A stretch of DNA of 55,209 nucleotides. It comes from an uncultured Christensenellaceae bacterium (lineage in GTDB: Bacteria > Bacillota > Clostridia > Christensenellales > UBA3700). Location: positions 1 to 55,209 of the forward strand of contig CALWKR010000020.1 in the NCBI GenBank assembly GCA_944381315.1, read 5' to 3'. Below are positions 32,831 to 52,791 of this stretch, piece by piece. The position numbers and the translations under genes were made by a program. Position 1 is the first letter of the stretch, and every line of letters starts with the position of its first letter. The notes beneath the pieces are model-generated. The model searched no databases. It was not told the origin of the DNA and was given only the letters and a program-made list of their open reading frames with translations.

Positions 32831-32930
32831 AATTTTCTCCGTCTTTATTTTAGCAAAATCGCGCGCGTCGGTCAATGCAATATTCGCTCAATATTATGGA
32901 GAAAAGCGCGTCTGCGCCGCGCTCGCATAC

Positions 32931-36746: not shown

Positions 36747-36776
36747 AAAAAAACGGGGCAGGTCGCCCTGCCCCGT
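36747..36776 (-). terminator. Terminator ending the hexuronate operon
   Basis: ACGGGGCAGG-gcga-CCTGCCCCGT-TTTTTT on the minus strand. Confidence 0.8.
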
Positions 36777-36787: not shown

Positions 36788-38098
36788 TCAAAGCGTGGGT
36801 ACGGATACCGCGCCGCCGTCCTCGCCGTAGGCGATGTCGATGACGATGTGCATGCTGTCAAAGACGTCCGCTTTGAGCACAAGCTTTTGGTTGACCGCGT
36901 TCTCCTCGACATAATAAGGCATGATGCGCTCGACGTAATAGTCGATCTGATCCAGCCTGCTGTGCTTGTTGTTGTAGTCGTAGGTATAGCGCGCGGTGGT
37001 CATTGCGCCGATGTTGTCCCAGACATAGGAGATGTCCTCGTCAAAGTTGCTCCAATACTTGTTGCCCGACTCGATGTTCTCCTCAAGATTGATCCTCAGA
37101 GCCTCGTCGAAGTATGTCTCGATCCCGACCTGCCACTCTGCGACCGACTCTTTGAGACTGTCGAGATATTGCGGGATCGTCTGTTCGATCGCCGTCGTCC
37201 AGCCGGCGTCCGACGTGGAAGCAGGCACTTCCGGCACCGTCTCGAAGCCGATCACGGGCGCGTTCTCGGGCATGGCGTAAACCGATCTGTACTGCGCCTG
37301 CATGACATGGGTATAGATCTTGTTGCCGTTGGAGAAGCCGACGCAGTCTTCGGACAGGAAGGTGCCGACGTGCACGCCGTATTCTTCGAGCAGAGTGAGC
37401 CCGTCCTCGATCGTCTCGAACACGACGGGATCGCCGCCGTTGACGGAAGTCTTGGTCACTCCGTCCTCGCTCGCGACGACATAGACGATGCTGTTGTCTA
37501 TCGCCGCCTTGATCGTGTCGTATCTGTACTTGTCGCTCTGCGATTCTGCCGCCTTGGTCTGCAACTCTTCGAGTTTCGCTGCCCCGTCCTCGCCTATGCA
37601 ATCGGTGAAGTCGTCATAGAAGTTCTCCCAGATCTCGGGATAGACGGTCAGCTTGAAGTAGAAGTTGTCCGAGCCGTTCTGCGCGTACTGAACATACGAA
37701 TATTGGTCGTACCACGCATTGGTCTCTCTGCCGAGATCGGCGAGGGCTTGCTGTCTGTCGCTCTTGGTGCCGAACAGGTCGTCCAAGAAGTTGCTGTCCT
37801 CGTCGGCGAGCTCGTCGCTGAGAGCGTTGTACATCTTTTCGTATCGATCCCAACCCTTGTCGGACGAAGTGCCGCGCTCGATCGCCGCGTTGAAGTGTCT
37901 CTCGACGGCGAACTCTGTCGTGAAGGACGCCTGCTGCAAGTTGGCGAGAATGGACTCGTACTTGCTCTCGAAATCCTTCATATCGTCCTCGATGGACTGA
38001 TAGTACTCTTCTTCGCTCTGCGAGCAGCCGACGAACACGGTCGCAAGCAGGCATATGACGGCAATGATCGCCGTGAGGATAACGTATCTCTTTTTCAT
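36788..38098 (-). CDS. Acidic lipoprotein of unknown function (436 aa)
   Basis: Lipobox FVG-C; starts 3 nt after the transporter stop; no recognised domain. Confidence 0.8.
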
Positions 38099-38101
38099 AG
38101 C

Positions 38102-39703
38102 TCACTCCTCCCCGTCAAAGTGCACCGTCTCGGCGGCGACCGCCTCTTTGAATTCGACGACGTCTTTGCCGTCGATGACGACTTTGCCGTCCTCGGTGAC
38201 GGGAGCTTCGGCGCCCTGCTCGGCAGCCTTCTTGGCTTCGTACTCCGCCTTTCTCTTGTGCGCGAGCCTGACTTCGATCTCAGCCATCTTCTTGCCCGAG
38301 AGGTTGTAGAACAGCATCGGGATGATGGACACGAGGTTGGTGATGGCAGGTATGATCGTGAAGATCATGAAGATGCCCATCTTGGTGAACTCGGTCTGCG
38401 CCGGCGTATGGTCGTTGAGGAAGCCGAGCGGCTGCGAGAACAGGAAGAACGCGAGCAGCCAGGACAGGAAGTAGTCCTTGAATCCCGACGAGACCTTGCT
38501 GCGCAAGCTCATCAGCGAGAACGTGATGCCCTCGAGTCTCTCGCCCGTCTTGTCTTCCCAATAGTCGAGCGTATCGGTCGCCATGAGGTGCGGCACGACG
38601 TTGAGCACGCCGACTGGCAGCATTGCGAAGAACATCAGCACCGCGACGAGTATGAAGTCGGTGCCGCCCAGCAGATATATGATGAAGATGAGCGCCAGCG
38701 CCGCTGAATGCCAAACCGTAGCCAAGATGAACAGCCGCTTGGAGTCCATCTTGCGTTTCAGCCGCGGAGCGAACAGCATGCCTATCATCGACGCGATCGC
38801 GCTCGGGAGCGCAAACGCTATCTGCAGCGAGCCGTTGCTGTATATGTATGCGACGACGTACATGATCGCCGCGCTGACGAGGTTGCGGAAGAACGTCAGC
38901 AAATTGGACAAGATCAGCAGCAGGAAGGGCTTGTTCTTGAACATATACTTGAATCCTTCCAACAAGCTCGGCGTGGTCTCGGTAGGTTCGCATCTCTCCT
39001 TGACGCGGATGCCGCCGAGCACCATGAACAGAGGTCCGAGCACGCCGATGATGATCGCCGTGATCATATAGGTATTGGTGTAGTCGTCGTTGCTGAGCAG
39101 CAAGCCGAGCGAGATGAGCACGAGCGCGGACTGCTCGCCTATCGATCCCAGCACACGGCTGACCGAGATCAGCTTGGATCTCTCGTCCATATTGGGCGAC
39201 GCGACTGCCGGGATGCCGTCCAGAGGCACGCCGACGATGGTACCGGTGATGTCATAGAGGATATATGTGACGTACATCCACGCGATCTTGCCGCCGGAAG
39301 AGAATCCGGTGACCGGCATGAACATCAAGATCGTAACTATCGCCCACGGCACCGCGCCGATGACGAGGTAGGGGCGCATCTTACCCCAGCGCGTACGGGT
39401 CTTGTCGACGATCATGCCCATGACGGGGTCGTTGAGGCCGTCGAAGATCTTGGTGATCAGGAACATCGTGCCAACATCCGTTGCATTTATGCCCACGCAC
39501 GCTGTGTAGAAGAACAACAGGTAGCCCTGAACAAGACCGGTGACCGCGCTGCTTGCGAAACGCGCGAGCGCGAACAGGATGTAATCCTTCTTGGACAGGA
39601 ACTTTTCGTTGATCAGCTTGCTGTCTTCGGCGGCATTGTTGTCCGCGCCGCCGTCAGGAGCGAGCTGAGCCAACTCTTGGTTGGTGTCGATCGTATTTTC
39701 CAA
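38102..39703 (-). CDS. MFS glycoside-pentoside-hexuronide (GPH) cation symporter
   Basis: KIFDGLNDPVMG.IVDKTRTRWGKMRPY; DTLDY.E.KTGER.EG; TTG start with GGAGG 7 nt upstream. Confidence 0.9.
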   Translation of the reverse strand: MENTIDTNQELAQLAPDGGADNNAAEDSKLINEKFLSKKDYILFALARFASSAVTGLVQGYLLFFYTACVGINATDVGTMFLITKIFDGLNDPVMGMIVDKTRTRWGKMRPYLVIGAVPWAIVTILMFMPVTGFSSGGKIAWMYVTYILYDITGTIVGVPLDGIPAVASPNMDERSKLISVSRVLGSIGEQSALVLISLGLLLSNDDYTNTYMITAIIIGVLGPLFMVLGGIRVKERCEPTETTPSLLEGFKYMFKNKPFLLLILSNLLTFFRNLVSAAIMYVVAYIYSNGSLQIAFALPSAIASMIGMLFAPRLKRKMDSKRLFILATVWHSAALALIFIIYLLGGTDFILVAVLMFFAMLPVGVLNVVPHLMATDTLDYWEDKTGERLEGITFSLMSLRSKVSSGFKDYFLSWLLAFFLFSQPLGFLNDHTPAQTEFTKMGIFMIFTIIPAITNLVSIIPMLFYNLSGKKMAEIEVRLAHKRKAEYEAKKAAEQGAEAPVTEDGKVVIDGKDVVEFKEAVAAETVHFDGEE

Positions 39704-39755
39704 TTCATAACCTCCCGATTATCACTTTTGTGATATCTCTATTTGGTGACTTGCG

Positions 39756-41702
39756 TCACTTTGTCCTTTGGGTGAGCTGCTTGTCGAAGAACTTGCCGTC
39801 CGCATAGCTCATTACGAACGCGCCCGTACTGCTCCAAGCCTGCAACAGACTGCCCTGCTTGTGCAGCGGAGAGAAGAACTCCACCGGAGTGTAGTTGCCC
39901 TTCTCGAAGTTGTATTCGAACCAGCGCGTCAGCGGATAGACATAGTCCATGCCGTGCATCAGCTTTGCGTACGCATAGACGCAGGACAGATAGGGCCAGT
40001 CTCCGCCGTTGTGATAGTAGTACGGCAGCGAGGACTTCTGAACGATGTCCGTCGCGCGCTTGTAGAAAGGATAGACGCTCAGCGTGCCGAAGTCGCCTGC
40101 GATCTGCTCGCCGTTCTTGTCCGACTCCAACCACTTCTCCATGGCCGAGAGCACCGATACGGCGCGCTTGTCGTCGCACAGTCCGAACAAAATGACCGGC
40201 ACCGTGTCAATCGACAGGTTGTCCTCGACGAAGTCTGCGTCCTTGTAGTTGACGAACCACCCCTTGGCGTCGTCCCAGAGCAAGGCGTTGATGGACTCCT
40301 TGACTTTGCGATATTTGGCATACCACGAGTCCCCCGACGCGCCGACGACGTCGCACATCTCCGCCATCGCGAACAGCGCGCGCGCATAGAGAGCTTCGTC
40401 GTAGGTGACATAGCCGCAGCGGAACACGTTGTCGCACCAATCGCGGCGGTTGAACTCTCCGCTCTTGACGAGCAAGCCGCTCGCGTCCGTCTCTTCTCCG
40501 AGCCTGTCGAGGACGAGCCGCGCGGCGTCCAAGACGGTGCCGCAGTCGCACTGCTCGCTCAATATCGACTTGTCGCCCGTGTGGCGCAGATAGTCATAGA
40601 TCATTATTACAAAGAAGGACGGCGAATCGTAGTGGTTGCCCCAATAGTTGCGGAAGTTGAACTTGACCGCAGACGGACACTCGCCCTTCTTGTTGATGCC
40701 GCACGCGAGAGTGACGATCTCGTTGCGGACGAGGTCGGGCCTGACGGGCAGCACCGACAGCACCGTCCAATAGGCGTCGCGGTAGTACGTCCTTGCCGGG
40801 AACTGATAGACTATGCCGGCGAGGAAGCCCTTGAACTTGCCCAGCTCCTTGTAGTTGGACAGCGAGCAATTGAGCAGCGAGCGGTAGTAAGCGTCCGCAA
40901 ATTCCTGCCCCTTGACCTCGGCGACCTTGCCTCCGTCCGGGCACGCGAGCGAATCGACGTATGCGTCGGCGTCCGCGAGCGCGCGGTCAAAGGAGTCGAA
41001 CGCGTCGTCCACGCTGCTGAAAGTATAGTCGTTGCGCGTCCCGGCGCTGACGACATAGCGCATCTTCTTCACTTCGCCGGCATTGAGTCGCGCGCCGTAG
41101 GCGAATTGATTGAAGAATCCTCTCTCATGTTCGAGCGCAACGGCCTTTTCGCCTATCGCGAAGTCTATGTAGAAATCGCCGAGCACGTCGCCGTGCAGAC
41201 GATAGTGCGAGCCGACTTGCGTCAAGCCGTTCTTCTTGCTCTTGACAAATCCGGCAAGCAGCGTCGCGATCGTCTTGGGGCTAAGTCTGTTGGCGAGCAG
41301 CTGCTCGACATAGGAGCTGTAATTCACGCCATAATTGACCGTGTCCGAAAACTCGATCGCCTGCTTTGCCGCGACCTGCGTCTGCACGAAGATCGCATTG
41401 GTGCCCGAGTCGAGGAAGAGCGTGATCTCGATGTCGCACTTGGGGTGAGCGATGCGCACGACCTGCTTTTTGCCGACCATCGTGACCGTCTTGGGCTCGG
41501 AATAATCGAGCGGCACTCCGTCCACCGAGTAGACGGAATAGAAGTTGCTGAACACGGAAAACTTGTTCATCACCGCATACTTGGAGACGGCGCCTCTGCC
41601 GTCGAACTGCGCGGTGATGCGATTGTTGCTGACGTCGTATTCCGCGATGTCGGCGAGGACTCCCTCGACTACCATCGCGCCGCCCTTGAAGTACTTTTTC
41701 AT
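39756..41702 (-). CDS. (alpha/alpha)6-barrel glycoside hydrolase (GDE_C/GH78/GH63-like fold), family uncertain
   Basis: RTYYRDAYW, DSPSFFVI..YDY...TGD, DWCD, LWD....WF, YHNGG.WP, LQAWS. Confidence 0.75.
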   Translation of the reverse strand: MKKYFKGGAMVVEGVLADIAEYDVSNNRITAQFDGRGAVSKYAVMNKFSVFSNFYSVYSVDGVPLDYSEPKTVTMVGKKQVVRIAHPKCDIEITLFLDSGTNAIFVQTQVAAKQAIEFSDTVNYGVNYSSYVEQLLANRLSPKTIATLLAGFVKSKKNGLTQVGSHYRLHGDVLGDFYIDFAIGEKAVALEHERGFFNQFAYGARLNAGEVKKMRYVVSAGTRNDYTFSSVDDAFDSFDRALADADAYVDSLACPDGGKVAEVKGQEFADAYYRSLLNCSLSNYKELGKFKGFLAGIVYQFPARTYYRDAYWTVLSVLPVRPDLVRNEIVTLACGINKKGECPSAVKFNFRNYWGNHYDSPSFFVIMIYDYLRHTGDKSILSEQCDCGTVLDAARLVLDRLGEETDASGLLVKSGEFNRRDWCDNVFRCGYVTYDEALYARALFAMAEMCDVVGASGDSWYAKYRKVKESINALLWDDAKGWFVNYKDADFVEDNLSIDTVPVILFGLCDDKRAVSVLSAMEKWLESDKNGEQIAGDFGTLSVYPFYKRATDIVQKSSLPYYYHNGGDWPYLSCVYAYAKLMHGMDYVYPLTRWFEYNFEKGNYTPVEFFSPLHKQGSLLQAWSSTGAFVMSYADGKFFDKQLTQRTK

Positions 41703-42871
41703 GCCTGCTTGACTCCGCCCTGTTTCTCTTCTTCTATCCTCTGCTCGAGACCTGCGATGAACGCGTCCTCGTCGATCGGATAGACGACTTGCTTGCCCGT
41801 CCAGCTCGAGAGATGGATGGCGTTGCTGAACGTCAGTCCGTTGAGTCCGTCCGCATACGGCGCGATCAGCTTGCTCTCTTTGCCGAGCACGACGAGAGAG
41901 AAGTTGCGGATGACGTTGATGTGCTGCTGCTCTATCGCTCCCTTGATCATGTCGATCAAGTTGAGCTTGTACTTGTATGTCTTGTTGGGGATCTTGCCCA
42001 TAAAGACCTTGTTGGTGGCGCTGAATTGAGGTTCGGGCATACTGTTCTCGACAAAGGTGAGCTTCATCGTGATGTCGCTGCCCCCCTCAATGATCATCTT
42101 GCCGCCGTCGCCGCTGATCTCGAGACGGTTGGTGCCGGGCGCGTCGTGGGTGGATGTGATGAACACTCCCTCCGCGCCGCCTTCGAACTCGCAGACCGCG
42201 GTCACGTCGTTCTCGACATTGATCTTGCGCCCGACGGTCTTTGCGACGCTCCACACCTTGGTGATGGGCTTGCCTGCCAACCATGTGAACAGATCGAGCT
42301 GATGCGGATCTTGATTGATCAGCACGCCGCCGCCTTCGCCCGCCCAAGTGCCGCGCCAGCCGCCTTGGTCGTAGTACGCCTGCGGTCTGTACCAATTGGT
42401 GATGATCCAGACTATGCGTTTGAGATTGCCGAGCCTGCCGGAATCGATGATCTCTTTGGCCTTGACATACACCTTGTTGGTGCGTTGATTGTAGAGCAAT
42501 CCGAATTTGAGCTCGGGCTTGGTCTTGCCGTGTTCCGCCGCCTCGCGCACCGCCTTGGTATAGACGCCTGCCGGCTTGTCGCACAGCACATGCTTGCCTG
42601 CGTCGAGAGCCTCGATCGCGATGCCGGGATGCGCATAGTGCGGAGTGTCGATGATGATCGCGTCGACGTCCTTGTCTGCAAGCAGCTGCTTGTAGTCGTC
42701 AAAGACTTTGACCCCTGCGAGGTTGCTCTTCGCCCACTGTCTGCGATCTTCCTTGATGTCGCAGACGGCGGCGAGAACGCCGTTTTTGTCCATGCCCTTG
42801 AAGAGCCTCTTGGCATAGTTGCTTCCCTGCTTGCCTATGCCGATGATCCCGTACCTGACCTTGTCCATCAT
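41699..42871 (-). CDS. Gfo/Idh/MocA oxidoreductase (3)
   Basis: GIIGIG.QG, TPHYAH, GKHVLCDKP, NQR, GGGVLINQDPHQLD. Confidence 0.9.
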   Translation of the reverse strand: MMDKVRYGIIGIGKQGSNYAKRLFKGMDKNGVLAAVCDIKEDRRQWAKSNLAGVKVFDDYKQLLADKDVDAIIIDTPHYAHPGIAIEALDAGKHVLCDKPAGVYTKAVREAAEHGKTKPELKFGLLYNQRTNKVYVKAKEIIDSGRLGNLKRIVWIITNWYRPQAYYDQGGWRGTWAGEGGGVLINQDPHQLDLFTWLAGKPITKVWSVAKTVGRKINVENDVTAVCEFEGGAEGVFITSTHDAPGTNRLEISGDGGKMIIEGGSDITMKLTFVENSMPEPQFSATNKVFMGKIPNKTYKYKLNLIDMIKGAIEQQHINVIRNFSLVVLGKESKLIAPYADGLNGLTFSNAIHLSSWTGKQVVYPIDEDAFIAGLEQRIEEEKQGGVKQA

Positions 42872-43815
42872 GCCTTCTCCTTTTCCGCTCTTTCGAGGAT
42901 ATCTTTGAGTCCGCGGTATTGCCATGTGAAGATGTCTTTGCGCGTGACTTTCTGCATCGGCTCGATGCCTTTCGCCTCGTCGATGCGTTTGAATATCTTG
43001 TTCCAATTGCCGACATAAGGCAGCATCCAAGTGAACCATCCGAAGATGTGGAACAGCACCTTGTGATCCGCATACTTGCCGGTGTGCGGCTCCAGCGTCA
43101 TGAAGCCGTCATAATTCCTGTTGACGACGAGATCGCGGATCATCTCGTTGTAGCCGCCAAGACCGAGCCCGATCGGGACCTCGACCTTCTCGGGCGAGCA
43201 GTCCTTGATATGATAATAGACGACGTAGTCTTTGAGCATTTGATACGCCATCGGCGCGTTGACTCCGCATTGGATGAAGTTGGACGCGTCATATGCGAGC
43301 TTGAATTGGGGATCGTTGATCTCGCTGTACAATTGCAAGCATCTCTCGGGAGTGTCGCCGTAGATGCGCTTCTCGTTCTCGTGCAAAAGGATGACGTCCT
43401 TGCCTTTGACTCTTTCGAGGAAGCCGCGCAACTTCTTGACGACTTCGGGGAAGTAGGCGTCATAGTCGCCGCCCTGCTTGACTCTGAACGAGAAGATGCG
43501 GATGTACTTGCAACCCATAATCTCGCAGATCTTGACCAGCTCGTCCAGCTTGGTGAGCTGAGCCTCATAGGCGGCGTTGTCGTGCAGCCCTATCTTGCCT
43601 ATCGGCGAACCTATCGACGAAAAGAGTATCCCCGCCTCGTCCAAGCGCGGCTTGATGTCCCTCGCGAACTCCTCCGCGGTGTAGTCGGCGATGTTCTTGC
43701 CGTCGACGACGCGCGGGCACAGATACTTCTCTCCGAACTCCTTGATCAGAGCGATCTGGTCGTCCAGCTTGGAGCTGACCTCATCGTAAAAACCCGATAT
43801 CTTTACCTGTGACAT
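42868..43815 (-). CDS. AP_endonuc_2/xylose-isomerase-like TIM-barrel sugar isomerase/epimerase/lyase
   Basis: SGFYDE, GSPIGK, IRIFSF, LLHENEK.IYG, YDASNF, HIKD, TLEPH. Confidence 0.85.
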   Translation of the reverse strand: MSQVKISGFYDEVSSKLDDQIALIKEFGEKYLCPRVVDGKNIADYTAEEFARDIKPRLDEAGILFSSIGSPIGKIGLHDNAAYEAQLTKLDELVKICEIMGCKYIRIFSFRVKQGGDYDAYFPEVVKKLRGFLERVKGKDVILLHENEKRIYGDTPERCLQLYSEINDPQFKLAYDASNFIQCGVNAPMAYQMLKDYVVYYHIKDCSPEKVEVPIGLGLGGYNEMIRDLVVNRNYDGFMTLEPHTGKYADHKVLFHIFGWFTWMLPYVGNWNKIFKRIDEAKGIEPMQKVTRKDIFTWQYRGLKDILERAEKEKA

Positions 43816-43826
43816 AATTCCTCCAC

Positions 43827-44978
43827 CTATTTGCTTATTCCGGCTTTGCCGTTCATTTCCTCTTTGATCTTGGCGGCGAGCGCGTCGGCATACGCCCCCT
43901 CGTCGACGGGCAAGCTCACCTTGCCTCCCGACCAATCCGAAAAGTTCATCGCATTGATCATCGACAGCGCGCCCATCCCCTCTTCGCCTCTCGCGACGAG
44001 CAGCGAGGGATCGTGCCTCTCCGCCGCGCGCACGAATGCGCGCAATACCTTGCATTGCTGCCCCATCCGCCAGTCGAACAGATAGTTGTCTATCCCGTAG
44101 AACTTGCGCACGGTGCGATATTTTTTGTCCTCTTTGTTGCCGTAATCGCGCTTGGAACGCGCGTTGATCTCGCTCTCGTCCATTTTGAGCAGCTTGGCGG
44201 TCAGCATGCCCCTCGTGACCGTCAGCAAACCCTTGGTGCCGGCTATCTCCAATCTGTTCACTCCCGGCAGCTCGTGCGTCGACGCGCGGAAAGAACAGTC
44301 AAAGCCGTCGTATCCGAACAGCGCCGTCACGTCGTTCTCGGTCGAGATGTGCCTGCCCACGGTCCTGCACTTGCAGGTGACTTCGGACGGCATGCCGAGG
44401 ATCCACTGCAACAAGTCGAGCTGATGCACGCATTGATTGATCAGCGTGCCGCCGCCCTCTCCCGACCAGCTCGCACGCCAGCCGTTCATGTCATAGTAGA
44501 ATTGCGAGCGGTACCAATCTGTGACCGTGAAGTCCGCGCGCACTATCTCGCCCAGCTGTCCGCTGCCGACGAGCGCCTTGGCTCGGGCATAGAGAGGATT
44601 GGTGCGTTGGTTGTAGACGATCCCGAAAATTACGTCCCCGTGTCGATGAGCGACGTCTATCAGCTGTCTCGCGCTCTGCGCCGTGACGGATATGGGCTTC
44701 TCCACGAGGGTGTGTACGCCTGCCTCTATCGCGTGCGAGCAGATCTCGACGTGCGAATAGTGCGGCGTCGCTACGACGACTGCGTCGGCGGCTCCCGAAT
44801 CTATCAATTCGCGATGATCGGCGAAGGTCTTGACTCCCCACTTGCTCTCGGCTTTGGCACGGACGGACGGATCGATGTCGCAGATCGCGGCAAGCTGCGC
44901 CCCGGGCACTGCTCCCGACGCGAGATTCGCCGCATGGCGCGACCCCATCCTTCCTGTTCCGATGACCGCAACTCTCAT
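43827..44978 (-). CDS. Gfo/Idh/MocA oxidoreductase (2)
   Basis: AVIGTGRMG, ATPHYSH, LVEKP, NQR, GGGTLINQCVHQLD. Confidence 0.9.
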   Translation of the reverse strand: MRVAVIGTGRMGSRHAANLASGAVPGAQLAAICDIDPSVRAKAESKWGVKTFADHRELIDSGAADAVVVATPHYSHVEICSHAIEAGVHTLVEKPISVTAQSARQLIDVAHRHGDVIFGIVYNQRTNPLYARAKALVGSGQLGEIVRADFTVTDWYRSQFYYDMNGWRASWSGEGGGTLINQCVHQLDLLQWILGMPSEVTCKCRTVGRHISTENDVTALFGYDGFDCSFRASTHELPGVNRLEIAGTKGLLTVTRGMLTAKLLKMDESEINARSKRDYGNKEDKKYRTVRKFYGIDNYLFDWRMGQQCKVLRAFVRAAERHDPSLLVARGEEGMGALSMINAMNFSDWSGGKVSLPVDEGAYADALAAKIKEEMNGKAGISK

Positions 44979-45628: not shown

Positions 45629-45644
45629 GCTGTCGACGCTCTCC

Positions 45645-46922
45645 TCACTTTTGTATGTCCGGGATCTCGGACATCTCAACCTTTGCGCCGCCGCGGTGTC
45701 TGGACAGTTCCGCAGCGGTGACTATGCGGTGGCTCTCCACCGTATCCTCTATCCAAGTATATTGTCCGTTGGGATCGAGCTTGCCGCGCAGCAGATCCGC
45801 GGTGGCCTTGCTTATCCCCTCGTCGCCGCCGTAATGTCCCTTGATCACGGGGATGATGTTGACGACGATCTTCTTGGTGCGCTTGTCGAACAGCCTCAGC
45901 TCGATGACGCTGCCCCTGTCGTCGGCGATCAGCTCGCCCTTGGTGCCGCGGATCTCGGTGTGGCGATGGTCTTTTTCGTTGAACGCGTTGGCGGTCATCA
46001 CGATCTTGACGCCGTTCTCCATCTCCATATTGACCGTCTGGCAGTCGACGACGTCGTTGTCGCACGCAAAGACGCATCTCGACCACAGCTTGCCGCGCTC
46101 GCCGTTTTTGAGCGCGTCGATGACCGCGTCCTTCTTGGGACTGACGCTGAAAGCATACGTCCCCCACGGGAACTTGTGCGGTCTCAGCCCTCTGCCCACA
46201 TATTGATAGGTGCATTCATAGATGCACTCGTTGCGGTACTTGCAGTCAAAGCAGTTGTCCGCCGCACCCTGCGGCGCGTTGGCGGAATTGAAGAAGGACA
46301 GATCTCCGTACGACGACAGGCTCTTGCACTTGGCTCCGGCGAACCAATAGAGCAAGTCCATATCGTGACAGCACTTGGCGAGCAGCATCGGCGAAGTCTC
46401 CTCTTCGCGGCGCCAATTGCCTCTGACATAGCTGTGACAGAAGTGCCACCACGAGATATGCTCGTCATGCTTGATCAGCTTGATGTCGCCGAGCACGCCT
46501 TGATCGATCAGCTGCTTTATGCGGCGATAGTAGTTGGCATAGCGCAACACATGGCAGACAAGCACTTTTCTGCCGTGCTCGCGCGCATACTTCTCTATCT
46601 CCAAGCACTCCTCGATGTTGGGGCTGACCGGCTTTTCGAGCAACAGGTCGTAGCCGAGCGCGAGCGCCTTCATCGCGTGTCCGTAGTGGTCGCGGTCTTG
46701 AGTTGCGATGACCATGACGTCGGCGACTTTGCCTTGACCGAAAAACTTGTCCTCGTCGACGAAACACTTGTCGTCGGGGACGTGCCAAGCCGTCTTGACG
46801 TTGTCGATCTTGGCTTGATATTTGTCGCAGATCGAGACGATCTGCACGTCGGGGATCGCGTTGAGATGATTGCCGTAATTGCGGCCTCTCGACCCGAGCC
46901 CTATCACCGCGACCTTGTGCAT
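45645..46922 (-). CDS. Gfo/Idh/MocA oxidoreductase (1)
   Basis: VIGLGSRG, ATQDRDH, LLEKP, CHVLRY, HSYVRGNWR, LAKCCHDMD, GHYGGD. Confidence 0.9.
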   Translation of the reverse strand: MHKVAVIGLGSRGRNYGNHLNAIPDVQIVSICDKYQAKIDNVKTAWHVPDDKCFVDEDKFFGQGKVADVMVIATQDRDHYGHAMKALALGYDLLLEKPVSPNIEECLEIEKYAREHGRKVLVCHVLRYANYYRRIKQLIDQGVLGDIKLIKHDEHISWWHFCHSYVRGNWRREEETSPMLLAKCCHDMDLLYWFAGAKCKSLSSYGDLSFFNSANAPQGAADNCFDCKYRNECIYECTYQYVGRGLRPHKFPWGTYAFSVSPKKDAVIDALKNGERGKLWSRCVFACDNDVVDCQTVNMEMENGVKIVMTANAFNEKDHRHTEIRGTKGELIADDRGSVIELRLFDKRTKKIVVNIIPVIKGHYGGDEGISKATADLLRGKLDPNGQYTWIEDTVESHRIVTAAELSRHRGGAKVEMSEIPDIQK

Positions 46923-46923
46923 A

Positions 46924-47757
46924 TCAAACCCCCGAATAGGCGGAGAAGCCTCCGTCGATCGGCACGACGATGCCCGTGACGAATCCCGCCTTGCTGTCGT
47001 CGGTGAGCCATGTCAGCGTGCCGAGGATCTCCTCGGGCTCTCCGAATCTGCCCATCGGAGTGCTCGCGATGATCTTGCGCGCTCTCGCGGTGGGCGCGCC
47101 GTCCTTGTCGAACAGCAAGACGTAATACTGCTTGGTGACAAAGAAGCCGGGCGCGATCGCGTTGACTCTGATCCCCTCTTTGGCAAAGTGAACGGCGAGC
47201 CACTCGGTGAAGTTGCTGACCGCCGCCTTTGCGCCGCTGTAAGCCGGGATGCGCGTGAGCGGACGGAAAGCGTTCATCGAAGAGACGTTGACGATGTTGC
47301 CGCCCCTGCCGACCATATCGGCGGCAAAGACCTGCGTGGTCAGGAAGGTGGCAAGGAAGTTGAGCTTGAACACGAAGTCCACGCCTCCCCCGTCGAGATC
47401 GAAAAAGCTCTTGACGTCGGGATCGTTCATGTCCTTGACGTCGAAGTAGTCGTTGGTCGTCGTCCCCTTGGGATTGTTGCCGCCGGCGCCGTTGATGAGG
47501 ATGTCGGTCAAGCCGAGATCCTTGTTGATCTGCGCCTTTGCCGCGATCATCGTCTCCTTTTCGAGACAATTGACGGCATATGCCTTGGCGATCCCGCCGT
47601 CCGCGACGATCTCGTCGGCGACCTTTTGCGCCGCGTCGAGATTGAGATCGAGCACGGCTACCTTTGCGCCGAGTTTCGCATACTCATTTGCCATCATGCT
47701 GCACAGGATGCCTCCTGCGCCGGTGATGACTGCGACCTTGTCCTTGTAGATATCCAT
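46924..47757 (-). CDS. uxuB: SDR-type D-mannonate oxidoreductase (fructuronate reductase)
   Basis: TGAGGILC, NGAGGNNP, SSMNAFRPLTRIPAYSGAK, NAIAPGFF; directly after uxuA. Confidence 0.88.
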   Translation of the reverse strand: MDIYKDKVAVITGAGGILCSMMANEYAKLGAKVAVLDLNLDAAQKVADEIVADGGIAKAYAVNCLEKETMIAAKAQINKDLGLTDILINGAGGNNPKGTTTNDYFDVKDMNDPDVKSFFDLDGGGVDFVFKLNFLATFLTTQVFAADMVGRGGNIVNVSSMNAFRPLTRIPAYSGAKAAVSNFTEWLAVHFAKEGIRVNAIAPGFFVTKQYYVLLFDKDGAPTARARKIIASTPMGRFGEPEEILGTLTWLTDDSKAGFVTGIVVPIDGGFSAYSGV

Positions 47758-47781
47758 TTTCTCCTCCCTGTGTATGTTATC

Positions 47782-48849
47782 TCACTTTATTGTCGGCACA
47801 TACTCGCCGCGCTGTTTGCCCACTGCTTCGATGATCCCGTCAAGATACATCGCGCCGAGCGCACGGTCGTACAGTCCGTATCCGCCTCTGCCCTCTTCGC
47901 CCCAGATCATGCGGCCGTGGTCGGGTCTGACATAGCCGTCGAACTTGGCGTCATAGAGAGCGTTGACGATCTGATACATGTCGAGGCTGCCTCTTTCGGA
48001 GACGTGTCCGCTCTCTTCGAAGCAGCGGTCGCCCGTGATCTTGACATTGCGCAGGTGGGCGAACGAGATGCGGTCGCCGCACATGCGGATCATATCGGGC
48101 AAGTTGTTGGCAGGATCGACTCCGAGCGATCCCGTGCAGAAAGTCACGCCGTTGAACGGAGTGTCCTCGATCGCGAACATGCGCTTGTAGCTCTCCGCGC
48201 CCGTGATGATGCGCGGCAAGCCGAAGATGCCCCACGGCGGATCGTCGGGATGGATCGCCATGCGCACGCCGTACTCCTCGGCGACGGGGATGACTTCGTG
48301 CAAGAACGTCGCGAAGTTGCTCCACAGCTTCTCTGCGTCGACGTCGGCATATCTGCCCAGCAATTCTTTGAGCCCGTCCTTGGTGTAGCTCTCGTCCCAG
48401 CCGGGGAGACTGAGCTCGCTCTTGACCGGATCGAGCGCGAGCACGGTGTCACGGTCGTATGCGAGCGCATGCGAGCCGTCGGGGAGCTGCTTGGAAAGGT
48501 CGCTGCGCAGCCAGTCGAATACGGGCATAAAGTTGTAGCAAATGCATCTGACGCCTGCGTTGCCGAGACGGCGCACGTTCTCCTTGTAATTGTCGATGAG
48601 CCTTGCGGCGTCGGGGCCGCCCAGCTTGATCTCTTCGTGGACGGGCACGCTCTCGACCACCTCGAACTCCAAGCCCTTCGCCTCGGCAAGGGTCTTGAGC
48701 CTGTTGATGCTCTCGTTGCTCCACACCTCGCCTACGGGGGTATCGTAGACGGCGGAGACGACGCCGGTCATGCACGGGATCTGTCTGATCTCGTCCAGCG
48801 TGATCCTGTCTTTTTCGCCATACCAGCGGAATGTCATCTTGAATGCCAT
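47782..48849 (-). CDS. uxuA: Mannonate dehydratase
   Basis: MTFRWYG, ESVPVHEEIK, CYNFMPVFDW, HPDDPP, FAHLRN, RPDHGR, GYGLYDRALG. Confidence 0.96.
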   Translation of the reverse strand: MAFKMTFRWYGEKDRITLDEIRQIPCMTGVVSAVYDTPVGEVWSNESINRLKTLAEAKGLEFEVVESVPVHEEIKLGGPDAARLIDNYKENVRRLGNAGVRCICYNFMPVFDWLRSDLSKQLPDGSHALAYDRDTVLALDPVKSELSLPGWDESYTKDGLKELLGRYADVDAEKLWSNFATFLHEVIPVAEEYGVRMAIHPDDPPWGIFGLPRIITGAESYKRMFAIEDTPFNGVTFCTGSLGVDPANNLPDMIRMCGDRISFAHLRNVKITGDRCFEESGHVSERGSLDMYQIVNALYDAKFDGYVRPDHGRMIWGEEGRGGYGLYDRALGAMYLDGIIEAVGKQRGEYVPTIK

Positions 48850-50229
48850 TTATCTCTCCTCCAAAAGGGCTTTTGCGTTGCCGTAACAGAGCGCGTATGC
48901 GACTTGCTTTGCGGCGTCCGTGCTGCCGTCCGCGTGATCGGCGAGCCAATTGCAGACGACTTGACGATAGTAGTCGTGTCGTGTATAGGACAAGAAACTG
49001 CGGCTGTCGGTCAGCATGCCGACGAGCGAGCAGATGTGTCCGAGCTCTCCGAGCGCGTCGAGCGTCTCGGTCATGCCGCGCTTGTGGTCGCAGAACCACC
49101 AGCTTATCCCGATGTGCACTCCCCTGAACGCGCCTGCAAGCGTGATCAGCGGATAATACGCGATCGGATTGAGCGAATAGATGACGGTCTCGGGAAGAGC
49201 GTGCGCGTCGTTCATCGCGTCGAGCATGCGCCTGACGCTCTCGACGGGAACGGGATCGGCGACACAGTCAAAGCCGCTGTCCGCGCCGAGCTCGCGGAAG
49301 CCCTGCGAGTCGCAATTGCGCGCAACGGACAGGTGCATCTGCATGACCATGCCGCGCGCCGCGTATTCTTTGGCGAGCGCGAGATAGAGCGCGCCTTTGT
49401 AGGCGTCGACGTCCTCCGCGCTCGGAGTCTGTCCCGAAACGAGCTGCGCATATATGCGCGCTGCGCGCTTGTCGTCGGCGATCGCGGACGGGAAGCCCTC
49501 CACTCCGACGTCCGAGAACTTGCATCCGTGCTCGACGAACGTATCCATGCGCGCCGCGACAGCCGCCTTGAACTCGTCCCATGTGTCCACGCTCATGCCT
49601 GCCGCCGCGCCGATCGCGCGAACGTAGTCGGCATATCCCGGCTTGTCTGCTCCGACGAGCTTGTCGGTGCGGAATGACGGCACGACTTTGACGTCGAGAT
49701 CTTTGTCTTCGGCAATGAGTCTGTGCCAATGCAGATCGTCGCACGGGTCGTCAGTCGTCGCGACATAGACGACGCCCGACATCTTCATGAGCTTGCGCGG
49801 CGAGAGTTTTTCTCTCGCGATGACGTCGTTGGCTTTTTGCCAAATGACGTCCGCGTTTTGGGCGTTGAGCTCCTCCGTTATCCCGAAGAAGAAGCCCAGC
49901 TCCGACTTGACCCAATCGCGCATGGGATTTCCGAGCGCGAGTCCGGTCGCTTTGGCGAACGCGCGGAACTTGTCCTTGATGTCCGCGTCGCCGGTGATGT
50001 ATTTTTCGTCTATGCCGAAGCCGCGCATCAGTCTCCATTTGTAATGATCCGCGGCGAGCCACATTTGCCCGATGTCGTCAAACGGCTTGTCCTCAAAGAT
50101 CTCCTTGGGCGAGAGATGGCAATGATAGTCTATGATCGGCAGCGACTGCACGCCGTCATAGAGCTCTCTCGCGAGCGCGTTCTTCAAAATGTCCGCCGTC
50201 TTACCTTTGAACTCTGCCACTTCCGTCAC
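48850..50229 (-). CDS. uxaC: Uronate (glucuronate) isomerase
   Basis: PIIDYHCHL, DHYKWRLMR, TTDDP, WWFCD, GMLTDSRSFLSY.RHDYYR; GTG start. Confidence 0.93.
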   Translation of the reverse strand: MTEVAEFKGKTADILKNALARELYDGVQSLPIIDYHCHLSPKEIFEDKPFDDIGQMWLAADHYKWRLMRGFGIDEKYITGDADIKDKFRAFAKATGLALGNPMRDWVKSELGFFFGITEELNAQNADVIWQKANDVIAREKLSPRKLMKMSGVVYVATTDDPCDDLHWHRLIAEDKDLDVKVVPSFRTDKLVGADKPGYADYVRAIGAAAGMSVDTWDEFKAAVAARMDTFVEHGCKFSDVGVEGFPSAIADDKRAARIYAQLVSGQTPSAEDVDAYKGALYLALAKEYAARGMVMQMHLSVARNCDSQGFRELGADSGFDCVADPVPVESVRRMLDAMNDAHALPETVIYSLNPIAYYPLITLAGAFRGVHIGISWWFCDHKRGMTETLDALGELGHICSLVGMLTDSRSFLSYTRHDYYRQVVCNWLADHADGSTDAAKQVAYALCYGNAKALLEER

Positions 50230-51226
50230 CCTGCATGAGTTTGAGCACTTCTGCCTCGGTCACCGCGTTGAAGTCTCCCTCGATCGTATGTTTGAGGCAA
50301 GACGCCGCGACAGCGAATTCGAGCGATCTCGCCTCGTCCCAACCGTTGGACAGTCCGTGGATGAGGCCTGCTCCGAAGCTGTCTCCGCCGCCGACTCTGT
50401 CGACGATGTCGATCTCGTAGTGCTTGCTCGTCAGGACTCCGTGCCTCCCGACGAGGATCGCAGACCAACCGTTGGAGTCCGCATTGTGACTCTCGCGCAG
50501 CGTGAACGCGACAGCTTTGAGCGAAGGGAACTTGGCGAGCAGCTGCGCGCCTATCTCGGAATAGCCGTCCTTGGACAGCTTGCCCGAATCGATGGAACTG
50601 CCCTTGGCTTCGATGCCGAAGACGTCCTTGCAGTCCTCCTCGTTGCTTATCAAATATGTAACGCCGTCGAGCAGCTCCGTCATGACCTTGTTGGCTTTTT
50701 CGCGGCTCCACAGCTTTTTGCGGAAGTTGAGATCGCACGACACGTCGATGCCCTTGCTTCTCGCCTCTTTCATCAATTCGCCGATCATCTTTGCGGCGTT
50801 GTCCGAGATCGCGGGCGTGATGCCTGTCCAATGCAGCCACTTGGCGCCGTCCAGCACCTTGCGCGCGTCATAGTCGGCCTCCGAGATCTCGCTTATCGCG
50901 CTGTGCGCGCGGTCATATATGACTTGCGACGCGCGTTGCGAAAAGCCTTTTTCGCAAAAATATATGCCCATGCGCTCGCCGCCGCGGACGATCTTGTCCA
51001 CTCCGACGCCCCATCCTCGCAGCGTGTTTACGCAGGCGTCGGCAATGGGATTGTCGGGCAGCTTGGTGAAGAACGCCGCGTCGTCGCCGAATTGGGCGAG
51101 CGACACCGCCACGTTTGCCTCGCCGCCGCCGTAGACGGCTTCGTAACTGTCGGTCTGCACGATGCGCTTGTAGCCGGGCGGCTGCAACCTGAGCATGATC
51201 TCTCCTGCGGTGACTATCTTGCTCAT
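50201..51226 (-). CDS. kdgK: 2-keto-3-deoxygluconate kinase (PfkB family)
   Basis: GEIMLRL, YGGGEANVA, DLNFRKKLW, DRVGGGDSF. Confidence 0.92.
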   Translation of the reverse strand: MSKIVTAGEIMLRLQPPGYKRIVQTDSYEAVYGGGEANVAVSLAQFGDDAAFFTKLPDNPIADACVNTLRGWGVGVDKIVRGGERMGIYFCEKGFSQRASQVIYDRAHSAISEISEADYDARKVLDGAKWLHWTGITPAISDNAAKMIGELMKEARSKGIDVSCDLNFRKKLWSREKANKVMTELLDGVTYLISNEEDCKDVFGIEAKGSSIDSGKLSKDGYSEIGAQLLAKFPSLKAVAFTLRESHNADSNGWSAILVGRHGVLTSKHYEIDIVDRVGGGDSFGAGLIHGLSNGWDEARSLEFAVAASCLKHTIEGDFNAVTEAEVLKLMQGDGSGRVQR

Positions 51227-51873
51227 CTCGCGCCTCCTCTGACTCTCTCTATCTCGGCGACGAGATCGCGCGCGGTCTGCTCGACCGCCGCATAGTCGCC
51301 CGTCTTGGCGCCTTTGGTCAAAAAGCTGCCTGCTCCGACGGCGCAGGCTCCCGCCTTGAACCAGTCGGCGACATTGGACAGATCGACTCCGCCCGTCGGC
51401 ATGATGTCGAGCTGCGGCAGAGGGCCTTTGAGGGCTTTGAGTCCCTTGGGGCCTGCGACATCGCCCGGGAAGAGCTTGACGAGATCCACTCCTGCCTCGA
51501 GCGCCGCGACCGCCTCGGTCGGGGTGAAGATCCCCGGCACGACGGCAACGGCATATCTGTTGCACAGCTTGATCGTATCTGTGTTGAGCGCGGGCGAGAA
51601 CACGAATTGCGCTCCCGCGAGTATCGCTGCTCTCGCCGTTTCGGGATCGAGCACGCTGCCTGCGCCGACAATGACGTCTTGGCAGTCGTACTTGGCGCAC
51701 AGCTCGGCGATGAGCTTGTCCGCCCCGGGCACGGTGAACGTGACTTCGATCAACTTGATCCCCCCTCTCACGCAAGCGTCGACGGACGCCAACGCCTTGT
51801 CATGGCTGTCACCGCGGATGACCGCGACGACGCCGCACCGTTTGATTGCTGCCAAAACCTGCTGTCTGTTCAT
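51223..51873 (-). CDS. eda: KDPG/KHG aldolase
   Basis: VAVIRG, IEVT, VGAGSV, PG..TPTE, KLFPG, MPTGGV. Confidence 0.93.
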   Translation of the reverse strand: MNRQQVLAAIKRCGVVAVIRGDSHDKALASVDACVRGGIKLIEVTFTVPGADKLIAELCAKYDCQDVIVGAGSVLDPETARAAILAGAQFVFSPALNTDTIKLCNRYAVAVVPGIFTPTEAVAALEAGVDLVKLFPGDVAGPKGLKALKGPLPQLDIMPTGGVDLSNVADWFKAGACAVGAGSFLTKGAKTGDYAAVEQTARDLVAEIERVRGGAR

Positions 51874-51924
51874 TCTACCTTCCTTGAGGACGCGCCTTGC
51901 GCCCATCATCATTCTGTTGATATT

Positions 51925-52002
51925 ATTATAAAATAAACACACACGAATTTCAAGTATTTGATTTTCAAAATTATGGACAAAACGGTTGAGTTCTGCTATA
52001 AT
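51925..52002. promoter_or_regulatory. Back-to-back sigma-A promoters for the eda operon and araC
   Basis: Minus strand TTGAAA(51953-51948)-N17-TATAAT(51930-51925); plus strand TGGACA(51974)-N17-TATAAT(51997-52002). Confidence 0.75.
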
Positions 52003-52026
52003 CAAATCGAAAGGAGGTGCACCGTA

Positions 52027-52791
52027 ATGCCCGTGATCAACTATATCGGCAAAAATATGAAGACCTACAACGTCTCCAGCCACCAGCACGACTATTGGGA
52101 GATCATCTATTGTACGAACGGCGACGGCAAGATCGTTTTTGAAGACGAATCCGTCATCGAGTATACGCGCAACCAAATGGTCATCATCCCGCCGCACGCC
52201 GTACATTCCAACATTTCCAAGTCGGGATTCCGCAACATCTACCTCACCGTCGCCAATTGGACTCCGACGTTCAAGCGGCCCCAGATCGTCTCGGACAACC
52301 CTCAACGCGACATCTACAACGTGCTCAACCTCTGCTATCGCTACTTCAATTCCGAGACGGGCAACCAAGGCAACATCATCGTCTCGTTCACAGAGCTGAT
52401 CATCAACCTGCTCGCCGCTTTCGCCGGCACCAACAACTGCTCTCGCCACGTCGAGATCATTGCGTCCGCGATCGTCGAAAACTTCTCCGATCCCAACTTC
52501 TCCCTCGACGACGTCTATGCGAGCTTCCCTCTCAGCAAAGACTACATCCGCAGACAGTTCATCAAAGAAAAAGGCATCTCGCCGCTTCAATTCCTCAACA
52601 ACACTCGCATCGCCTTTGCCCAAAAACTGCTGCTCGGCAAGACCGTCAACAACTTCAAGATCTATGAGATCGCCGAGATGTGCGGCTTCTCCGACCAGCT
52701 CTACTTTTCGCGAGTGTTCAAAAAGATCACCGGCGTCAGCCCCAAAGAATATACGAGCATACCGAGAGCGGAGCATTACAATAGTATTTAG
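52027..52791 (+). CDS. AraC-family regulator with an N-terminal cupin domain
   Basis: HQHDYWEI cupin; IYEIAEMCGFSDQLYFSRVFKKITGVSPKEY; AAGGAGG RBS. Confidence 0.93.
   Translation: MPVINYIGKNMKTYNVSSHQHDYWEIIYCTNGDGKIVFEDESVIEYTRNQMVIIPPHAVHSNISKSGFRNIYLTVANWTPTFKRPQIVSDNPQRDIYNVLNLCYRYFNSETGNQGNIIVSFTELIINLLAAFAGTNNCSRHVEIIASAIVENFSDPNFSLDDVYASFPLSKDYIRRQFIKEKGISPLQFLNNTRIAFAQKLLLGKTVNNFKIYEIAEMCGFSDQLYFSRVFKKITGVSPKEYTSIPRAEHYNSI

Follow-up and report, generated by a model that had tools for sequence, protein, structure and literature searches.

A thirteen-gene hexuronate operon of a chicken-gut Christensenellales bacterium with a putative oxidative route to glucuronide cleavage

Locus organization

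The window, meaning the whole stretch of 55,209 nucleotides analysed here (contig CALWKR010000020.1, C20, of GenBank assembly GCA_944381315.1), belongs to an uncultured Christensenellaceae bacterium whose genome assembly measures 1.48 Mb and is 91% complete. Its nearest public relatives are chicken-gut Christensenellales metagenome-assembled genomes (MAGs) classed as 'Candidatus Ornithoclostridium', and the stretch itself was recovered in chicken-gut metagenomes. The system under study is an operon of 13 minus-strand genes (36788-51873), in which five genes for glucuronate catabolism are joined to three Gfo/Idh/MocA oxidoreductases (Gfo1, Gfo2, Gfo3), a TIM-barrel protein, a protein with the fold of glycerophosphodiester phosphodiesterases (GDPDs), an enzyme resembling glycoside hydrolases (the GH), a GPH symporter and a lipoprotein. 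Genes were called by Pfam and NCBIfam scans, with refinement of start codons from ribosome-binding sites (RBS), and are listed in the order of transcription, followed by the regulator and the candidate signals:

51223..51873, minus strand: eda, KDPG/KHG aldolase (Pfam Aldolase 2.5e-45; TIGR01182, 188 bits against a cut-off of 156; start by RBS)
50201..51226, minus strand: kdgK, PfkB-family kinase, probably of 2-keto-3-deoxygluconate (KDG) (Pfam PfkB 4.3e-31)
48850..50229, minus strand: uxaC, glucuronate isomerase (Pfam UxaC 2.2e-143; NF002794, 499 bits against 387)
47782..48849, minus strand: uxuA, mannonate dehydratase (Pfam UxuA 1.5e-141; TIGR00695, 403 bits against 199.55)
46924..47757, minus strand: uxuB, D-mannonate oxidoreductase of the short-chain dehydrogenase/reductase (SDR) type (NF006132, 406 bits against 281)
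45645..46922, minus strand: Gfo1, Gfo/Idh/MocA oxidoreductase of a distinct type with a Cys-rich insertion (Pfam; weak PDB matches)
44975..45628, minus strand: GDPD-fold protein with HGG for HRG (predicted fold and PDB fold matches)
43827..44978, minus strand: Gfo2, putative P2B11-type glucuronide 3-dehydrogenase paralog (PDB 8tdi, E 5.6e-73)
42868..43815, minus strand: TIM barrel (AP_endonuc_2), candidate 3-keto-glucuronide lyase/hydratase (Pfam 2e-21)
41699..42871, minus strand: Gfo3, putative P2B11-type glucuronide 3-dehydrogenase (PDB 8tdi, E 6.9e-98)
39756..41702, minus strand: GH, probable cytoplasmic six-hairpin (alpha/alpha)6 glycosidase or phosphorylase (weak Pfam GDE_C, Trehalase and GH94)
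38102..39703, minus strand: GPH:cation symporter (Pfam MFS_2 5.4e-71; TIGR00792, 276.4 bits against 231.35)
36788..38098, minus strand: fast-evolving lipoprotein (signal peptide and Cys24; no Pfam or NCBIfam match)
51958..52791, plus strand: divergent AraC-family regulator (Pfam HTH_18 2e-16, HTH_AraC, AraC_binding)
51953..51925, minus strand: promoter-like site TTGAAA-17-TATAAT upstream of eda, 11/12 match (consensus match only)
36768..36756 and 36733..36714, minus strand: two terminator-like hairpins with T runs (consensus match only)

The genes are tightly packed, with spacers that range from a 29-base overlap up to 52 bases and 4-base overlaps at four junctions. An earlier note on this DNA had described a 13-gene minus-strand unit that starts at an eda promoter, ends at a terminator at 36747-36776 and is divergent from araC; all genes were found in the order that it gave, as were the AraC-family gene on the plus strand and, at the terminator, the hairpin at 36768-36756. 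The promoter and terminator calls are consensus matches that show no enrichment over shuffled sequence. The range that the note assigned to its finding, 36788..52791, is correct at the lower end, while position 52791 is the stop of the plus-strand AraC gene and not the end of the operon. A divergent AraC homolog also lies beside uronate genes in related loci L044, L045, L060 and L063. Near-identical contigs from two metatranscriptome libraries span the gfo2/tim, uxuB/uxuA, gfo1/gdpd and eda/kdgK junctions, which gives a weak hint that the operon is expressed; the operon parts left uncovered and the depth figures are uninformative.

The glucuronate pathway

UxaC, UxuB, UxuA and Eda all exceed curated NCBIfam cut-offs. 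The remaining enzyme of the pathway, KdgK, clears the Pfam PfkB threshold with 108.8 against 25.8 and has KDG kinases as its top NCBIfam matches. The assignment of these genes to the UxaC/UxuB/UxuA/KdgK/Eda route, made in the earlier note, is borne out for the four enzymes above the cut-offs and probable for KdgK, a PfkB kinase under the equivalog ones. The absence from the window of the glucuronidase families expected to feed such a route was also seen: Pfam detected no GH2, GH67 or GH115 among the window open reading frames (ORFs) scanned, of which two large ones, at 1864-4902 and 4899-6584, stayed without a Pfam hit. Five GH2-type matches occur in the genome, on contigs other than the window's.

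Gfo2, Gfo3 and the TIM barrel

Gfo3 matches PDB entry 8tdi over its full length (E 6.9e-98, 331 bits, residues 2-385 of 390 on 1-395 of 405), with its second-best PDB match at only 6e-33, and Gfo2 matches the same entry over residues 2-374 on 5-392 (E 5.6e-73); for the pair, the matches after 8tdi fall at about 1e-30 to 1e-33. Entry 8tdi is the crystal structure of the 'P2B11 glucuronide-3-dehydrogenase' (Oxido1), and the preprint that reports it names Asn147, Trp179, Arg181, Tyr185, Asn205 and His209 as active-site residues (Nasseri et al., bioRxiv 10.1101/2024.03.25.586180). In the alignments, Gfo3 and Gfo2 both have the same residue at each of the six positions, a mapping that assumes that the paper's numbering and the chain index differ by 10, an offset that we deduced. 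The two proteins share 39-40% identity with each other. By analogy with P2B11, both would oxidize glucuronides at C3 with a tightly bound NAD.

The TIM barrel scores 77.3 bits on Pfam AP_endonuc_2 (cut-off 31.1), and its motifs HENE, DASN, HIKD and LEPH, which we take to be metal ligands, are invariant in 14-29 sequences. A profile search of the PDB returned AsbF as the best match (2.1e-7), followed by IolI at 0.006; AsbF is a metal-dependent dehydratase working beside a ketone. In some relatives, described below, Gfo2 and Gfo3 are accompanied by a 258-aa protein, Iso, and by a GH2 resembling beta-glucuronidase (GUS). No homolog of Iso was found by tblastn in the 91%-complete genome of the window, which likewise contains no close ortholog of the GUS-like GH2, so that the TIM barrel is the only candidate lyase for Gfo2 and Gfo3 here.

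The assignment of Gfo2, Gfo3 and the TIM barrel to a putative oxidative glucuronide-cleaving set is well supported by these resemblances. This corresponds to the second of two hypotheses in the earlier note, that of 3-keto oxidation and elimination, which the full-length 8tdi matches and the six site residues support for these three of the five front-end enzymes. As precedent, P2B11 is closer than the DgpA/DgpC-type systems cited there; DgpA and DgpC match at only ~1e-15 to 1e-21. The first hypothesis had the Gfo enzymes process inositol, and the 8tdi matches speak against this part of it, since they mark Gfo2 and Gfo3 as glucuronide-type and not inositol-type.

The six-hairpin enzyme

The GH has no signal peptide. 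Its Pfam matches are weak and overlapping (GDE_C 26.6 bits, Trehalase 23.2, GH94 22.1), and its best profile match in the PDB is to GH78 (5.8e-7 over ~150 residues). The predicted model (mean pLDDT 65, pTM 0.70, active-site loops below 50) suggests a beta-sandwich at the N terminus with an (alpha/alpha)6 barrel after it, as in six-hairpin glycoside hydrolases and phosphorylases. Foldseek placed GH94 on top with a TM of about 0.6, and VIA-align gave Z values of 20-23 at 9-15% identity across eight tied families (GH94, GH116, GH63, GH100, GH15, GH78, GH133 and GH37), none of which stands out; the protein atlas returned six-hairpin families only. The family is small, with 305 relatives at E<=1e-3 among 1.84 billion representatives and weak matches in 2 of 400 other genomes sampled from the phylum, and a search with residues 290-648 retrieved only close Clostridia relatives annotated as 'hypothetical protein' or debranching enzyme. 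Sequences from L006 and L026, which have internal stops, were left out of the alignment. On sequence and predicted fold, the GH is best described as a member of a small six-hairpin family that is unassigned within CAZy. The HMM and structure assignment of 39756-41702 proposed in the earlier note therefore yields the fold and not a single best family, and because the predicted model is middling, we make no call between hydrolase and phosphorylase and name no catalytic residues.

The earlier note had assigned the release of glucuronic acid (GlcA) to this enzyme. One could accordingly imagine that the GH is itself an (alpha-)glucuronidase and that the Gfo and TIM enzymes do other work, such as a Thermotoga-like conversion of inositol to hexuronate; the operon has no classical GH2, GH67 or GH115, and an uncharacterised family could have any activity. 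However, nothing in the sequence, the PDB profile search or the fold comparisons marks the GH as a glucuronidase, no family fits, and no solved glucuronidase occurs among the fold matches listed for its middling model. Gfo2 and Gfo3 hold the full active-site set of a characterised glucuronide 3-dehydrogenase. The Thermotoga inositol route yields tagaturonate, whereas the operon has uxuA and uxuB, of the fructuronate branch, and no uxaA or uxaB. The genome moreover holds a classical IolG-E-D-B-C-J-A cluster, described below, because of which the Thermotoga-like route that the earlier note had brought in is not needed. We regard a glucuronidase role for the GH as very improbable.

A rhamnosidase activity, which the weak GH78 match might suggest, was considered and set aside: the match covers ~150 residues only, and no RhaA was found in the 91%-complete genome. 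A distant relative of the GH in genome G268 lies with LacI, an MFS_2 transporter, a GH31, an FGGY kinase and a KduI/IolB gene, and is too distant and ambiguous to use.

GDPD-fold protein, Gfo1, symporter and lipoprotein

The GDPD-like protein scores 18.3 bits on Pfam PF03009 (E 0.0027), under the cut-off of 23.6, which its ortholog in L025 exceeds with 30.4 bits. Its predicted model has a pLDDT of 92.6, and nearly all of its closest fold matches in the PDB belong to GDPDs (TM 0.75-0.79, identity 18%). The family comprises 104 clusters and is confined to Clostridia MAGs. Across 13 sequences H5, R13, N14, E31, D33, H45, D75 and K77 are invariant. Compared with GDPDs of the GlpQ/UgpQ type (PDB 3ks6, 2pz0, 5t91), the protein shares the fold and keeps two His, a Glu and an Asp at the expected places, but it is shorter (217 aa), has the invariant Arg13-Asn14 in place of E-N and an Asp for the Glu of E-x-K (motifs mapped by eye), and reads HGG instead of HRG in 13 of 13 aligned sequences. 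In GDPDs, the Arg of HRG binds phosphate. The label 'GDPD' used in the earlier note is hence apt for the fold, while the window protein itself falls under the Pfam cut-off and lacks the HRG arginine.

Gfo1 is of another type than its two neighbours. Its PDB matches are weak (~1e-11: the NAD-dependent GH188 sulfoquinovosidase 8qc2, NanOx 6z3b and inositol dehydrogenases), and it has only about two of the six P2B11 site residues. An insertion of ~72 residues, within residues about 215-295, contains six Cys that are invariant in 27 sequences. These follow the pattern C-x2-C-x5-C ... C-x3-C-x6-C, and an invariant CC pair precedes the catalytic His; the Cys residues may coordinate Zn or an Fe-S cluster, an uncommon trait among Gfo/Idh/MocA enzymes.

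The GPH symporter falls under the cut-offs of all specific equivalogs (glucuronide transporter, MelB). The gene after gph encodes a lipoprotein in 23 of 24 loci, in versions that are barely alignable; the lipoprotein of the window gave nothing usable in the protein atlas (best score 0.77) and has no detectable relatives outside the clade.

Conservation and modular structure

The order uxuA/uxuB-Gfo1-...-GDPD-Gfo2-TIM-Gfo3-GH is kept in 24 of 30 related loci, far beyond chance, and down to ~60% GH identity. This answers, in favour of conservation, the question of synteny between accessory enzymes and uronate genes that the earlier note had raised. Identity to the closest relatives is highest for the TIM barrel, Gfo3, Gfo1, UxuA/B and GPH proteins (86-93%) and lowest for the lipoprotein (53-58%). 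Between Gfo1 and GDPD, 20 of 26 GDPD-bearing loci encode a 150-aa protein without a family and a PHP protein that belongs to the CehA/McbA metallohydrolases (194-209 bits against a cut-off of 80). The two always occur as a pair, at L007:4644-6091, at L025:6899-8300 and in 18 other loci. Neither is encoded in the window or in its nearest relatives, the pair having been lost in the window's lineage and in L020/L021.

In genomes G001, G002 and G003 the operon is split into two loci. The glucuronide locus of G001 and G003 reads araC<>uxaC-uxuA-uxuB-eda-kdgK-GH2-Gfo2-Gfo3-Iso(258 aa), and that of G002 is shorter and has no GH2. The best match of this GH2 (L044:9029-11296 in G001; L045 in G003) is a LacZ4-type beta-glucuronidase model, at 2e-167 and under the cut-off; as it adjoins Gfo2-Gfo3-Iso, hydrolytic and oxidative glucuronide cleavage would coexist in one operon. 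The second locus of the split genomes reads Gfo1-153aa-PHP-GDPD-TIM-GH-GPH-lipoprotein. G644 has a minimal version, araC<>eda-kdgK-uxaC-uxuA-uxuB-Gfo2-TIM-Gfo3-GH. G472 carries GH20-148aa-PHP-GDPD-Gfo2-GH with no uxa/uxu nearby, and GH and GPH stand alone in G609 and L026, as do GH and a GPH-family (MFS_2) gene in L061. In relatives, the operon is thus made of two modules, one for glucuronides (uxa/uxu, GH2, Gfo2, Gfo3, Iso) and one accessory (Gfo1, 150-aa, PHP, GDPD, TIM, GH, GPH, lipoprotein). Behind the variant cluster of G472 (L062, G472:C3:84000-103900) lie genes for a Big_3/MBG surface protein of 1224 aa, for a class-III aminotransferase, for two aldolases of class II and for a GPH transporter.

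Co-occurrence was counted in 301 genomes of the order, with Gfo3-like genes defined at E<=1e-100 and printed lists intersected by hand; kin among these genomes are not independent. The GH was found in 22 genomes (16 full length) and a Gfo3-like gene in 40. A Gfo3-like gene is present in 15 of the 16 genomes whose GH is full length and in 22 of the 279 that lack any GH match, so that the link between the GH and the glucuronide dehydrogenase is near-obligatory.

The split raises the question of whether the two modules share anything beyond a promoter. Gfo2, Gfo3 and the uxa/uxu enzymes could act on glucuronides, and Gfo1-GDPD-TIM-GH-GPH-lipoprotein on a non-uronate glycoside, for instance an inositol glycoside or a phospho-glycoside. 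The physical separation in G001, G002 and G003 is in keeping with this, as are the lone pairs of GH and GPH-family (MFS_2) genes in L026 and L061, the pair with a LacI regulator in distant G268, and the cluster of G472. Against it, both the window and 24 of 30 loci have the genes interleaved one by one (GDPD-Gfo2-TIM-Gfo3-GH), with stop codons that overlap the next start; the GPH symporter would have to admit glucuronides too, because the operon has no other transporter; the GH rarely occurs without a Gfo3-like gene, as counted above; and G644 keeps Gfo2-TIM-Gfo3-GH with uxa/uxu while lacking Gfo1 and GDPD. Such independence of the modules appears quite unlikely.

Proposed pathway

We propose, with a probability of roughly 0.7, that the operon serves glucuronide and glucuronate utilization by a P2B11-type oxidative route that takes the place of GUS and feeds the Ashwell pathway, the accessory set handling the rest of the natural substrate. 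The GPH symporter would import a GlcA-containing glycoside, whose C3 hydroxyl would be oxidized by NAD-bound Gfo3 and Gfo2. The metal-dependent TIM barrel would then take off the aglycone by beta-elimination and hydrate the resulting 2-hydroxy-3-keto-glycal, and the reduced Gfo enzyme would return 3-keto-glucuronate to glucuronate. From there, UxaC would yield fructuronate, UxuB mannonate, UxuA KDG and KdgK KDPG, which Eda would split into pyruvate and glyceraldehyde-3-phosphate, with the divergent AraC regulator governing the unit. For the cytoplasmic six-hairpin GH, the most likely task is the removal of a further sugar from the imported compound, and Gfo1, the GDPD-fold protein and the lipoprotein may form a conserved accessory set for the remaining part of the substrate; we infer these last roles from context. 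Release of glucuronate without hydrolysis is the most likely course, the chemistry of Gfo2, Gfo3 and the TIM barrel being modelled on the characterised P2B11 enzymes.

The proposal is based on the match of Gfo2 and Gfo3 to 8tdi with its six site residues; on the TIM barrel, which shares its Pfam family with the P2B11 isomerases, has invariant acidic and His motifs and finds its best solved relative in AsbF; on the cut-offs passed by UxaC, UxuA, UxuB and Eda; on the gene order kept in relatives, including the minimal version in G644; on the company of Gfo2 and Gfo3 with uxaC-uxuA-uxuB-eda-kdgK in G001, G002 and G003; and on the Gfo3-like gene carried by nearly every genome with the GH.

Several observations weigh against this proposal. 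KdgK stays under the equivalog cut-offs of the best KDG-kinase models (228.6 against 440 and 129.9 against 400). The TIM barrel has no detectable kinship to the 258-aa Iso that accompanies Gfo2 and Gfo3 in G001-G003, and since it goes with the accessory module where the modules split (L025, L030), it may serve Gfo1. The gene order here is GDPD-Gfo2-TIM-Gfo3, with one AP_endonuc_2 protein between the oxidoreductases, in contrast to two flanking them in P2B11, and the sequence comparison with P2B11 covers Oxido1 (8tdi). Lastly, contigs from RNA libraries can be DNA-derived and do not prove a single transcript.

The link to inositol and a possible natural substrate

The genome of the window has a complete myo-inositol cluster (C78:7749-15841, L058) with an aldolase gene and iolC, B, D, E, A and G. 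Scores against cut-offs are 387/300 for IolC, 869/715 for IolD, 413/290 for IolE and 453/355 for IolG; IolB reaches 79.7 against an equivalog cut-off of 205 and 147.6 against 23.9 on Pfam KduI/IolB. No transporter was recognised among the 11 ORFs scanned at this cluster. A GH38-like 988-aa gene lies upstream of it, and the contig stops 1.8 kb past iolG.

In relatives, inositol genes adjoin the operon or its accessory module: the module directly follows iolD-iolE-iolA-iolG in L025 and iolE-iolG in L030, and in G678, of a sister lineage, one uninterrupted stretch comprises iolC-B-D-E-A-G, pfkB/araC and all of the eda...lipoprotein operon. Since the three lineages form one clade, this adjacency amounts to one or two rearrangement events. 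A PfkB gene lies between iolG and the module in relatives; that of the window's genome is on C55, beside a 1405-aa ORF. In the 301-genome sample IolD exceeds its cut-off in 31 genomes; it does so in 11 of the 16 whose GH is full length and in 20 of the 279 with no GH match, which makes the link of the GH to inositol catabolism frequent and not obligatory; the five GH-bearing genomes without IolD above the cut-off have completeness values of 84-98%.

These observations invite a special case of the proposed route, in which the operon would act on a glycan of the glucuronosyl-inositol(-phosphate) kind, for example the head of plant glycosyl inositol phosphorylceramides (GIPCs), sugar-4-GlcA-alpha1,2-inositol-1-P. 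The GH would cut off the O-4-linked sugar of GlcA, Gfo2, Gfo3 and the TIM barrel would cleave the alpha-glucuronide oxidatively, the GDPD-fold enzyme (with PHP in relatives) would act on the phosphate ester and Gfo1 on the inositol part, after which glucuronate would enter the Ashwell route and inositol the iol route. The abstract of PMC12498067 describes the GIPC head as inositol in alpha(1->2) linkage to a GlcA whose O-4 carries one more sugar, and P2B11-type enzymes are reported to cleave alpha-glucuronides (bioRxiv 10.1101/2024.03.25.586180). On this basis, the inositol and 3-keto hypotheses of the earlier note are not mutually exclusive, because an alpha-linked GlcA in the GIPC head would itself suit the oxidative enzymes. 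The chicken-gut habitat, where feed is plant material, the confident GDPD fold prediction, the iol genes beside the operon or module in relatives, the complete iol cluster in the window's genome, at which no transporter was recognised among the ORFs scanned, and the higher frequency of IolD among GH genomes all fit such a substrate.

The evidence also cuts the other way. The iol adjacency comes from a single clade of related genomes, and 5 of 16 GH genomes have no IolD above the cut-off. The GDPD-fold protein has Gly for the phosphate-binding Arg in all sequences aligned; the PHP protein, of the CehA/McbA family, is not necessarily a phosphatase and is missing from the window; and the GDPD-fold protein and the GH are expected in the cytoplasm, behind a GPH symporter. 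GPH symporters are not known to transport phosphorylated glycans, and a literature search on bacterial catabolism of the GIPC head found no paper. A GIPC substrate therefore appears unlikely; if true, it would imply the first catabolic route described for a very abundant plant lipid headgroup and would reveal what a new family of glycosidases, the GDPD subfamily without the Arg and the Cys-rich subfamily of Gfo enzymes do. Of the first hypothesis of the earlier note, a GlcA-inositol-phosphodiester substrate, the core idea keeps circumstantial support from iol adjacency, the GDPD fold, PHP in 20 of 26 loci and IolD enrichment, whereas a GH that acts as glucuronidase and an action of Gfo2 and Gfo3 on inositol are unlikely.

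Implications

Bacterial removal of GlcA from conjugates governs the recycling of drugs, hormones and bilirubin in the gut and is usually credited to GH2 beta-glucuronidases. If the oxidative route proposed here is correct, the operon ties the oxidise-and-eliminate chemistry described in 2024 to a transporter, a regulator and the full glucuronate pathway in small-genome chicken-gut Christensenellales; with such wiring, it would look like a main nutritional pathway and not a side activity, and gene surveys centred on GUS would miss it. The conserved extra genes and the inositol link in relatives provide a testable lead to the natural substrate and to the functions of three enzyme subfamilies. 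Literature searches on 'glucuronide 3-dehydrogenase' or 3-keto-glucuronides found no paper, a search on P2B11 found only bioRxiv 10.1101/2024.03.25.586180, and nothing relevant was found for Gfo, xylose-isomerase-like and 3-keto combined or for Christensenellaceae with glucuronate and inositol.

Other features of the window

Elsewhere, the window encodes a fucosidase-type GH95 (30131-32875), a GH35 beta-galactosidase (13825-15567) and a GH18 with an F5/8 type C domain (23088-24581). The block at 1864-11672 consists of very large minus-strand ORFs, namely those of 1012 aa and 561 aa that lack a Pfam match, an ABC ATPase and a 1456-aa Listeria-Bacteroides repeat/MBG protein, and may represent a surface or adhesin system. 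The gene at 25068-25892 encodes a putative immunity protein of the Imm5-like kind (1.1e-23) and adjoins those of a DeoC aldolase and a pyrimidine-nucleoside phosphorylase. The GC fraction is 0.42 at 1-2000 and 0.52-0.62 in the rest of the window, and no tRNA was found anywhere in it.

Comparison with known systems

Classical glucuronide utilization combines a GH2 beta-glucuronidase and a glucuronide transporter with the Ashwell pathway UxaC-UxuB-UxuA-KdgK-Eda. The operon has the same five catabolic enzymes, KdgK being a probable assignment, and a GPH-family transporter but no GH2, and its UxuB is of the SDR type. The Bacillus-type iolABCDEGJ operon is represented by a full set in the window's genome (C78), and in G678, L025 and L030 it is a direct neighbour of the operon or of the accessory module; it lies outside the window, and adjacency and co-occurrence suggest the functional tie. 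The 3-keto-glycoside (AL/BT) clusters of Alistipes and Bacteroides thetaiotaomicron offer a parallel in their stepwise oxidation, elimination and hydration, as described in the preprint (bioRxiv 10.1101/2024.03.25.586180). They differ in that Gfo1-3 score 38-58 bits on the BT_2158/BT_2159 NCBIfam models against cut-offs of 650-750, that no DUF1080 protein occurs among the operon ORFs scanned, and that the substrates expected here are glucuronides and not neutral glucosides.

The closest counterpart is P2B11, a fosmid from a Gram-positive human-gut bacterium with the genes Iso1-Oxido1-Oxido2-Iso2. According to the preprint, this four-enzyme set acts on alpha- and beta-glucuronides, which it cleaves through oxidation at C3, elimination and hydration, and it requires Mn/Co-stimulated 'sugar phosphate isomerase' proteins; no transporter or regulator is reported in the vicinity (bioRxiv 10.1101/2024.03.25.586180). 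The operon likewise has two paralogous Gfo/Idh/MocA oxidoreductases, both full-length matches to 8tdi, and an AP_endonuc_2 partner from the Pfam family of those 'sugar phosphate isomerases', again in a Gram-positive gut bacterium; the chemistry expected of it is C3 oxidation, elimination, hydration and reduction on alpha- and beta-glucuronides. What sets it apart is the interleaving of Gfo1, the GDPD-fold protein, the six-hairpin GH and the lipoprotein, and the union of the putative oxidative set with a GPH symporter, an AraC regulator and the full UxaC-UxuB-UxuA-KdgK-Eda route.

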